This document shows positions 46,774 to 49,794 of a DNA stretch of 64,000 nucleotides, one piece after another; positions within the stretch are counted from its first letter, which is position 1, and every line of letters begins with the position of its first letter. The stretch lies in the NCBI RefSeq assembly GCF_003334335.1, contig NZ_QOWQ01000019.1; one strand, given 5' to 3'. The translations under genes were made by a program, and so were the position numbers. The notes under the pieces were generated by a model that did no database searches, was not told where the DNA came from, and was given only the letters and a program-made list of their open reading frames with translations. The DNA is from Escherichia coli (GTDB lineage: Bacteria; Pseudomonadota; Gammaproteobacteria; Enterobacterales; Enterobacteriaceae).

Positions 46774-47673
46774 CTAAACAGCACCTTTATACTTCAGCCT
46801 ATCTATAAATAATGAGAATGCCGAGCCAGCATGTCGACGGTGTGGATAGTACAGGTGATAACCGGGTAAATCTGGTGTGAATTTATCCAAAACACGTATC
46901 AGTTTTTTTTCTTTAATAGCCCGCTCAACCTGATCATAAGGTAGATACGCCAATCCATGCCCATCAATTGCAGCATCAATGATCAGGTCTATCGTATTCA
47001 GTAAAAGCTGACCTTCCATGCGAACACGAACTTCACGTCCACCGCGTATTAATCTCCAGCGATTTGCTGTACCCGATGTGGGAAGATACAAATTAATTGC
47101 CTGATGATCTATTAATTGTGACACTGACGTTGGAACACTTCGGCGAGAAAAATAATCCGGTGAGCCAACAATAGCCATTGGTATATCTGGCCCGATTCGA
47201 ATGGCGATCATATCTTTATCCATCTCCCCACCCAGACGGACGCCTGCATCAAAACGTTCAGAAACGACATCGGTCAAACCATAATCAATGGTGAGCTGAA
47301 TATCAATTTCAGGATGCGATTTCAGGAATGTGCGCATTGCTGGTAACAATATCGTTTTTGCTGCATGTTCTACAGTAGTAATACGTATTGTCCCGGATGG
47401 GCGGTTCTGCAGATCGCTCAGGGATGCCATGGCTGAATCTATGTCATGCAACATAGGGCCAAGAACAGACAAAAGATGCTCGCCCGCTTCAGTTGGAACA
47501 ACGCTGCGCGTGGTTCGCGTCAGAAGCCGCAATCCCAATCGTTCTTCTATACGACGCACTATCTGGCTTAAAGCTGACTGCGCCATGCTCAGGCGGGCTG
47601 CTGCACGAGTGAAGCTACGCTCCTCTGCAACGACGACAAACGCCATCAGATCAGCGATTTCTTCACGCTTCAT
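46774..47673 (-). CDS. pgrR: LysR-family transcriptional regulator (PgrR/YcjZ)
   Basis: 299-aa LysR-type ORF with an N-terminal helix-turn-helix. Confidence 0.75.
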   Translation of the reverse strand: MKREEIADLMAFVVVAEERSFTRAAARLSMAQSALSQIVRRIEERLGLRLLTRTTRSVVPTEAGEHLLSVLGPMLHDIDSAMASLSDLQNRPSGTIRITTVEHAAKTILLPAMRTFLKSHPEIDIQLTIDYGLTDVVSERFDAGVRLGGEMDKDMIAIRIGPDIPMAIVGSPDYFSRRSVPTSVSQLIDHQAINLYLPTSGTANRWRLIRGGREVRVRMEGQLLLNTIDLIIDAAIDGHGLAYLPYDQVERAIKEKKLIRVLDKFTPDLPGYHLYYPHRRHAGSAFSLFIDRLKYKGAV

Positions 47674-47798
47674 TCAGTATCTCCATGCAATCTATTAATC
47701 ATTTAAATGATAGGTCTAATCATGATTTTGGGTCTAATCAACTTAATGATCAATATCTATAGTGATATCACCAACCGTTAAAACGAACCGACAACTCC

Positions 47799-48731
47799 AT
47801 GAGGAACGGAATGATGAATAATAAAGTCAGCTTCACTAACAGCAATAATCCAACCATCTCTTTGTCTGCAGTGATCTATTTCCCTCCAAAATTTGATGAA
47901 ACCCGTCAGTATCAGGCAATTGTGTTATCTCACCCAGGTGGGGGCGTTAAAGAACAAACGGCCGGAACCTATGCCAAAAAACTGGCGGAAAAGGGATTTG
48001 TCACTATTGCTTATGACGCATCTTATCAAGGTGAAAGTGGCGGCGAGCCGCGTCAGTTAGAAAACCCATACATTCGTACTGAAGACATCAGTGCCGTGAT
48101 TGATTACCTGACAACGCTTTCTTATGTCGACAATACCCGAATTGGTGCGATGGGAATTTGTGCCGGTGCAGGATATACAGCCAATGCTGCAATTCAGGAT
48201 CGCCGCATCAAGGCCATCGGTACCGTTAGTGCGGTCAATATTGGTTCGATATTCCGTAATGGTTGGGAAAACAATGTGAAATCTATTGATGCCCTGCCAT
48301 ACGTTGAAGCGGGTTCAAACGCCAGAACCAGCGATATTAGCAGCGGAGAATACGCCATTATGCCACTGGCACCAATGAAGGAGTCCGATGCGCCGAACGA
48401 AGAACTGCGTCAGGCCTGGGAGTATTACCACACCCCTCGCGCGCAGTATTCAACAGCACCGGGTTACGCTACTTTGCGCAGCCTTAACCAGATTATTACC
48501 TATGATGCTTACCATATGGCGGAAGTGTACCTGACTCAGCCGACGCAGATTGTGGCGGGCAGCCAGGCAGGGAGCAAATGGATGAGTGACGACCTGTACG
48601 ATCGAGCATCAAGCCAGGATAAACGCTATCACATTGTTGAAGGCGCAAACCATATGGATCTTTATGACGGCAAAGCCTATGTGGCTGAAGCAATTTCAGT
48701 ATTAGCTCCGTTCTTTGAGGAAACTCTGTAA
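47799..48731 (+). CDS. ycjY: YcjY, putative alpha/beta hydrolase (dienelactone-hydrolase-like)
   Basis: 310-aa ORF with a GICAGAG-type nucleophile-elbow motif; the true start may be a few codons downstream. Confidence 0.7.
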   Translation: MRNGMMNNKVSFTNSNNPTISLSAVIYFPPKFDETRQYQAIVLSHPGGGVKEQTAGTYAKKLAEKGFVTIAYDASYQGESGGEPRQLENPYIRTEDISAVIDYLTTLSYVDNTRIGAMGICAGAGYTANAAIQDRRIKAIGTVSAVNIGSIFRNGWENNVKSIDALPYVEAGSNARTSDISSGEYAIMPLAPMKESDAPNEELRQAWEYYHTPRAQYSTAPGYATLRSLNQIITYDAYHMAEVYLTQPTQIVAGSQAGSKWMSDDLYDRASSQDKRYHIVEGANHMDLYDGKAYVAEAISVLAPFFEETL

Positions 48732-48801
48732 TGAAACATATTCAAATCCGCAATAGTGATATGGACTGGCATATTGCTGCCAATAATCTGGGATAATTTT
48801 C

Positions 48802-48984
48802 ATGAAAAATGTACTGATTCTTGGTGCTGGCGGTCAGATAGCCCGCCATGTGATTAATCAACTGGCAGATAAGCAAACCATTAAACAAACTTTATTTGCC
48901 CGTCAGCCAGCAAAAATCCACAAACCCTATCCAACTAATAAAATGCAAACAACTTCCGGCAAAAAAGTGATACAAGATCGATGA
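48802..48984 (+). pseudogene. Short N-terminal fragment of an NAD(P)-binding Rossmann-fold protein (gene remnant)
   Basis: The 60-aa ORF MKNVLILGAGGQIARHVINQLADK... carries a GxGxxG dinucleotide-binding motif and then terminates, too short for a functional oxidoreductase. Confidence 0.35.
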
Positions 48985-49065
48985 CATAGCGTTGAAGAAA
49001 AGGATTTGATAATCCGCAAAATTTGCACAACACTGCCTGTAATACTTCCTGAACCAGAGACGATC

Positions 49066-49768
49066 ATGACCGTAACCCGCCCACGCGCCGAACGCGGCGC
49101 ATTTCCGCCCGGAACAGAACATTACGGACGTTCATTATTGGGCGCGCCGTTAATCTGGTTTCCTGCCCCTGCAGCCAGCCGCGAAAGTGGTTTGATTCTG
49201 GCTGGCACTCACGGTGATGAAAACTCTTCGGTCGTCACGCTCTCCTGTGCTCTGCGGACGTTGACACCTTCTTTGCGCCGTCATCATGTGGTGCTGTGTG
49301 TGAATCCTGACGGCTGCCAGTTGGGGTTACGGGCCAATGCTAATGGTGTGGATTTAAACAGAAACTTTCCGGCGGCGAACTGGAAGGAAGGTGAAACCGT
49401 TTATCGCTGGAACAGCGCCGCTGAAGAACGCGATGTCGTATTACTGACAGGTGACAAACCTGGCTCCGAACCTGAAACCCAGGCGCTGTGCCAGCTTATA
49501 CACCGCATTCAACCTGCCTGGGTGGTCTCATTCCACGATCCACTGGCCTGTATTGAAGATCCCAGACACAGCGAATTAGGCGAATGGCTGGCTCAGGCGT
49601 TTGAATTGCCTCTGGTAACCAGCGTCGGTTATGAAACGCCTGGCTCTTTCGGCAGTTGGTGTGCAGATCTGAACTTGCATTGCATCACCGCAGAGTTTCC
49701 GCCCATCTCCTCCGACGAAGCCAGCGAAAAATATCTCTTTGCGATGGCAAACTTGCTGCGCTGGCATC

Positions 49769-49794
<26 letters not shown>
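49066..49794 (+). CDS. mpaA: MpaA, murein peptide amidase A
   Basis: 242-aa M14-family ORF from the internal Met MTVTRPRAERGAFPPG; the longest ORF starts at 49006. Confidence 0.85.

Follow-up and report, generated by a model that had tools for sequence, protein, structure and literature searches.

Probable Origin of the ymjC Fragment of Escherichia coli by a 665-bp Deletion between ycjY and mpaA

The ymjC open reading frame (ORF) of Escherichia coli is almost certainly the non-functional stump of a 212-residue atypical SDR gene, which was made by one 665-bp deletion and has since been carried as a passenger. The ORF was analyzed in a 64,000-nucleotide stretch of E. coli DNA (the window), and positions are those of this stretch unless an intact allele is named. 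The remnant itself is already catalogued, i.e., it is named as a gene, has an entry in UniProt, and is flagged as a pseudogene in RefSeq; the present analysis adds the position of the breakpoint, the source of the 14-residue tail, the removal of a terminator-like hairpin, and the allele frequencies.

Results

Features of the ycjY-mpaA interval

The surrounding ORFs are pgrR (ycjZ), ycjY, mpaA, ycjG, tpx, and tyrR, and positions 48600-49200 of the window are 100% identical to the E. coli K-12 chromosome. Two intact-type loci, from strains MS20675 (L002) and E9 (L003), were fetched for comparison. The features are as follows.

47811..48731, + strand, ycjY, intact alpha/beta-hydrolase and first gene of the unit (RefSeq CDS, identical in the K-12 record)
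48731..48796, + strand, ymjD, 21-codon ORF (MKHIQIRNSDMDWHIAANNLG), start overlapping with the ycjY stop; remnant of hydrolase 2
48802-48984, + strand, ymjC ORF, ATG start, 60 codons and TGA stop
48802..48939, + strand, homologous part of ymjC, SDR / NAD(P)H-binding codons 1-46 including GxxGxxA; 46/46 residues identical to the parent
48940..48984, + strand, neo-C-terminus of ymjC, codons 47-60 (KMQTTSGKKVIQDR) and TGA; non-coding mpaA-upstream spacer in the intact allele
48940..48941, no strand, ymjC deletion junction; 665 bp of the intact alleles missing (L002 1842-2506)
48941..49065, + strand, surviving spacer, 125 of 290 nt (mpaA leader), colinear with L002 2507-2631
49066..49794, + strand, mpaA (murein tripeptide amidase), intact (RefSeq CDS)

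The layout is compact; in addition to the overlap of ycjY and ymjD, the ymjD stop lies 5 nt before the ymjC start. The NCBIfam hydrolase matches of ycjY are weak, and all are under the curated cut-offs. The Rfam scan of positions 47600-49200 returned one sub-threshold match only, an AdoCbl-II riboswitch inside ycjY (48248-48338; 21.5 bits against a gathering threshold of 36.5, E-value of 0.064), which was rejected as almost certainly a chance match. ymjE was also considered as a third small gene at this locus and was rejected, since it maps next to puuP.

The ymjC ORF

A sequence-only reading of this DNA had pointed out a 60-residue ORF, and an ORF of this length with an ATG start is indeed present on the + strand at 48802-48984. 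In an exact-sequence look-up, its translation (MKNVLILGAGGQIARHVINQLADKQTIKQTLFARQPAKIHKPYPTNKMQTTSGKKVIQDR) is an exact match to UniProt "Protein YmjC" (YMJC_ECOLI), and there is no difference between the ORF of the window and either this entry or the K-12 RefSeq pseudogene. K-12 gene databases list ymjC as an N-terminal pseudogene fragment. In the K-12 record of RefSeq, the pseudogene is described as "NAD-dependent dehydratase; incomplete; missing C-terminus," and it corresponds exactly to positions 48802-48939 of the window. The homologous part of ymjC thus has the extent of the RefSeq pseudogene, 138 bp, which is also the reported gene size (PMC8803141); elsewhere, ymjC is named as a putative oxidoreductase (PMC8355897, PMC9602453).

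A chance ORF was ruled out, because the first 46 residues are residues 1-46 of a 212-residue protein encoded at the same locus. They cover the first fifth of the PF13460 domain and contain the glycine-rich motif VLILGAGGQIA (residues 4-14), which follows the first hydrophobic segment and is the same in the parent. The start had been described as a canonical GxGxxG motif; the glycine-rich NAD(P)-binding start is present, whereas its spacing is GxxGxxA (G8-A-G-G11-Q-I-A14), i.e., the GxxGxx[G/A] spacing that defines the SDR/NmrA-type motif. A complete Rossmann-type domain (approximately 180 residues) is absent from the ORF, which keeps 39 of the approximately 182 domain residues (residues 8-46), and against NCBIfam the fragment scores at best 17.5 bits, where the cut-off is 267. 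Because only about one fifth of the nucleotide-binding domain is kept, we infer that the stump cannot act as an oxidoreductase.

Beyond residue 46, the ORF and the 212-residue protein diverge completely. The nucleotides of the tail are those of L002 2507-2550, which lie 166-209 nt 3' of the SDR stop codon (L002 2339-2341). The whole 60-residue ORF had been taken for an oxidoreductase fragment; this holds for codons 1-46, whereas codons 47-60 are former intergenic DNA. An abrupt stop followed by about 80 bp that carry no continuation had also been described, and the comparison agrees, as the 81 nt up to the mpaA start at 49066 contain no oxidoreductase sequence.

The ymjC ORF and mpaA are in one frame, in which a single TGA (48982-48984) and no other stop is found (translation of 48802-49110). 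The other listed members of the 90% cluster of ymjC in the exact-sequence look-up are MpaA proteins and not small proteins. This is probably because the two ORFs share a frame and are one TGA apart, e.g., through a member that is a stop-loss or read-through fusion.

The intact parent gene

The region was compared by megablast with 5,426 complete E. coli genomes, which are the sample for all counts given below. In many strains, an additional 665 bp separate the same flanks, and the gap is filled by a gene annotated as "SDR family oxidoreductase." The gene order in L002 is pgrR-ycjY-SDR-mpaA-ycjG, and L003 has the same order with a second alpha/beta-hydrolase gene (hydrolase 2) between ycjY and the SDR gene; a deletion pseudogene is expected to have such syntenic intact orthologues. 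The proposal that the ORF is what a deletion has left of an oxidoreductase gene is therefore sustained, as the 212-residue parent occupies the slot between ycjY and mpaA and the two forms are separated by one 665-bp gap. The parent and the breakpoint, which the sequence-only reading had suggested looking for, were both located within E. coli.

The intact SDR protein (WP_000800177.1, E. coli/Shigella) consists of 212 residues and matches Pfam PF13460 (NAD_binding_10) with residues 8-189 on model positions 1-184 (E-value of 3.4e-54), with weaker Pfam matches to NmrA and Epimerase. The NCBIfam scan of this protein gave no model at the curated cut-off. Over all 212 residues, it is near-identical to the crystal structure deposited as "NmrA family protein" (PDB accession number 3QVO). 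The parent shares with ymjC the locus, the start codon, the upstream region, and residues 1-46. It has in addition residues 47-212, which account for about four fifths of the domain, as well as its stop codon and a downstream hairpin, all of which are missing from the window. The nearest relatives in the PDB that are named for a function are BLVRB (biliverdin IX-beta / flavin reductase; 1HDO) and ChuY/ShuY (5GUY and 5FFQ), with phmmer E-values from 4.5e-06 to 2.5e-05 over approximately 155-185 residues. These proteins belong to the same NAD(P)H-binding atypical-SDR family; however, they are only distant kin of the parent, and their activities are not assignable to the ymjC stump.

The start of the SDR gene varies among intact alleles. 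A 12-nt indel lies just 5' of the start (L003 2495-2506 against window positions 48796-48802), where E9-like strains read ATGAGAAATATTATG, so that a 216-residue form starting with MRNIMKNV is possible in these strains. The window and L002 both lack the 12 nt, and database clusters hold both the 212-residue and the 216-residue forms.

Breakpoint of the 665-bp deletion

In a base-by-base comparison, identity in the left register extends through window position 48940, and identity in the right register begins at 48940. Since both registers include this base, the junction is placed at 48940|48941 with a microhomology of a single A, and its position is uncertain by this 1 nt. Of the missing segment, 500 nt are coding; they start with the second base of codon 47 and end with the stop codon, so that codons 47-212 and the stop are gone. 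The other 165 nt belong to the 290-nt spacer between the SDR gene and mpaA. The flanks are colinear and 98-99.6% identical, and the breakpoint is definable, as is expected for a deletion pseudogene. At the ends of the 665 bp, no repeats or mobile-element features were found beyond the 1-nt microhomology. An assembly artefact was excluded as the source of the junction, because 2,293 complete genomes share it.

The spacer between the SDR gene and mpaA of the intact allele contains a 15-codon ORF (MKMQTTSGKKVIQDR; L002 2496-2543), and the junction lies in frame inside it (the retained part is window 48941-48984). The tail of the ymjC ORF arises because the junction has this position. The 15-codon ORF is probably not a gene, because no obvious Shine-Dalgarno sequence was found for it.

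The junction also creates a -10-like hexamer, TAAAAT (48939-48944), with TCCACA 16 nt upstream (interval 48917-48944). The hexamer is located approximately 120 nt before mpaA, and the intact allele reads TAGCAA at this place. Promoter scans gave fewer sites than shuffled sequence, so the hexamer is regarded as a consensus match only and is given no evidential use.

ymjD, a second deletion scar

ymjD is composed of 18 N-terminal codons and 3 C-terminal codons plus the stop of the 310-residue hydrolase 2. In the alignment with L003, it was made by an in-frame deletion of 867 nt (L003 1612-2478), with the junction at window 48785|48786, and its 21-residue product is an exact match to UniProt YMJD_ECOLI (YmjD). 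Like ymjC, ymjD is a short ORF to which a deletion has reduced an accessory gene of the same operon. On the other hand, the ymjD deletion is internal and in frame (289 codons), leaving the authentic start and stop, whereas ymjC has lost its 3' end and terminates at a spacer-derived stop. In K-12 gene databases, ymjD is listed as a deletion-fusion remnant that is reportedly expressed.

Allele frequencies and order of the deletions

An 80-nt query spanning the ymjC junction has a full match in 2,293 of the 5,426 genomes (~42%); among all matching records, the best place has at least 99% identity in 2,281. A total of 2,943 genomes contain the deleted 665-bp segment (2,901 at ≥80% coverage). Among the strains with the deletion are K-12, strain C, and O104:H4, and the intact SDR gene is carried by strains including LF82, Nissle 1917, and O157:H7. 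The junction is identical in all carriers, which points to a single event.

The ymjD scar was found in 3,948 of the 5,426 genomes and the interior of hydrolase 2 in 1,283. The combination of a hydrolase-2 tail with the ymjC junction was searched for with a 307-nt chimeric query, which replaced an initial 325-nt query that was uninformative because the joined pieces are 665 bp apart. Only 2 of the 5,426 genomes have this combination, and neither is clean. The deletions are therefore nested, i.e., the loss of hydrolase 2 came first, and that of the SDR gene followed in a sub-lineage. Subtraction of the junction carriers from the scar carriers (3,948 - 2,293) gives 1,655 genomes with the ymjD scar only; with the 1,283 genomes that have hydrolase 2, 2,938 SDR carriers are expected, and 2,943 were observed.

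The two exceptions to the nesting are PNUSAE019785 and BS-04. In PNUSAE019785 (L005; NZ_CP104645.1, 648-2149), the SDR gene has an independent internal deletion of 78 bp and hydrolase 2 is frameshifted; these independent lesions suggest that the hydrolase/SDR cluster is dispensable and decaying. BS-04 (L004; NZ_CP172819.1, 2130-2880) has a partial remnant of hydrolase 2 and a run of 13 T at the ymjC junction in a gap-ridden alignment. It was rejected as an independent or intermediate deletion, because the junction is the same apart from the 13-T insert in that alignment, and an assembly error is probable.

Two further records were noticed at this locus. Strain 2017.13.01CC (NZ_AP027813.1, 2604838-2606215) has an IS1A insertion in the ycjY-ymjC-mpaA interval. 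The record NZ_CP026085.1, which is labelled "E. coli strain DH5alpha" (4.83 Mb), has intact hydrolase-2 and SDR genes; this is at odds with the K-12-type allele of the window, and the record may be mislabelled.

A terminator-like hairpin in the deleted segment

The segment removed by the deletion contains a hairpin at L002 2361-2385, 20 nt past the SDR stop, in which an 11-bp stem is followed by TTTATT. Its folding energy is -15.3 kcal/mol (z = -3.96), and none of 200 shuffled sequences folds as well. On the + strand of the window, the consensus scan found no terminator-like site between ycjY and mpaA. Terminator function and read-through are thus judged here from the consensus scan and the fold, and the T-tract TTTATT is weak. 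The Rfam scan of L002 at an E-value threshold gave only sub-threshold matches to RAGATH-10 and mir-181, which lie outside the deleted spacer and are ascribed to chance.

Discussion

The observations are best explained by one illegitimate deletion of 665 bp, which would have fused the SDR gene, after the first base of its codon 47, to a point 165 nt past its stop codon. The inherited start and ribosome-binding region would then open a chimeric frame of 60 codons, of which 46 are parental and 14 come from the former spacer. The deletion appears to have been a single event on a chromosome from which hydrolase 2 was already missing, with ymjD left as its remnant. The stump would persist because it is young and neutral, as a passenger in the ycjY-ymjD-ymjC-mpaA transcription unit.

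It is very improbable that YmjC is instead a selected small protein with a Rossmann N-terminus and a new basic tail, acting, e.g., as an upstream ORF or a modulator of mpaA expression. ymjC does retain the parental start, a weak Shine-Dalgarno region, and a translationally compact layout, and the exact 60-residue sequence is found on at least 1,000 contigs. All of these copies, however, are one near-invariant allele, and for this reason their conservation is uninformative about selection; more than half of the E. coli genomes lack the junction and have intact-type sequence instead, and the tail is translated spacer. The comparison within E. coli thus did not reveal the conserved, complete small protein that would have contradicted the sequence-only reading. 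The position of ymjC in frame with mpaA, with a single TGA between them, could also be seen as a sign of function; however, a stop-free shared frame over 27 codons has an estimated chance of about 9%, which is unremarkable. Weak phenotypes of ymjC have been published (PMC9602453, PMC8803141, PMC8355897). The Keio deletion of ymjC had a 2-fold higher trimethoprim MIC that was not reversed by complementation (PMC8355897), and the TraDIS signal was judged to be stochastic by its authors (PMC8803141). In a pan-genome study, acid-resistant isolates were enriched for "ymjC" (PMC9602453), an enrichment that may simply track phylogroup.

The opposite polarity, in which the short form is ancestral and the 212-residue gene arose by a 665-bp insertion, is scarcely credible. 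The comparison was made within E. coli alone, and the polarity is not formally rooted; nevertheless, the long form specifies an entire Pfam domain and a protein that has been crystallized, whereas the short form stops one fifth into this domain and then continues through DNA that the long form does not translate. In addition, the ends of the 665 bp lack the repeats or mobile-element features of an insertion, and the short form is confined to the background with the ymjD scar.

Given a deletion, its effect may reach mpaA. A ycjY-ymjDC transcription unit has been described (PMC3946193), and the PgrR regulon includes a unit given as "ycjY-ymfDC-mpaA" [sic] (PMC5934670). Because the deletion took the hairpin and the window has no terminator-like site between the two genes, tighter co-transcription of mpaA with ycjY is plausible in the K-12 lineage. 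Removal of the hairpin would probably strengthen the coupling of mpaA to the PgrR-controlled promoter of ycjY. A broader reading, possible but doubtful in our judgment, is that the nested deletions and the hairpin loss joined a four-gene accessory cluster and an mpaA gene that had been terminated separately in a single short operon; PgrR control of mpaA would then be a lineage-specific rewiring (~42% of E. coli, including K-12) and not a species-wide feature.

The locus is a textbook case of an accessory E. coli cluster whose genes are still decaying. Knockout and TraDIS phenotypes of "ymjC, putative oxidoreductase" in K-12 should not be read as oxidoreductase functions and may reflect polar effects on mpaA, and the presence or absence of "ymjC" in pan-genome studies probably scores a lineage-tracking allele. 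Likewise, the regulation of mpaA as derived from K-12 may not apply in strains whose SDR gene is intact and still followed by the hairpin.
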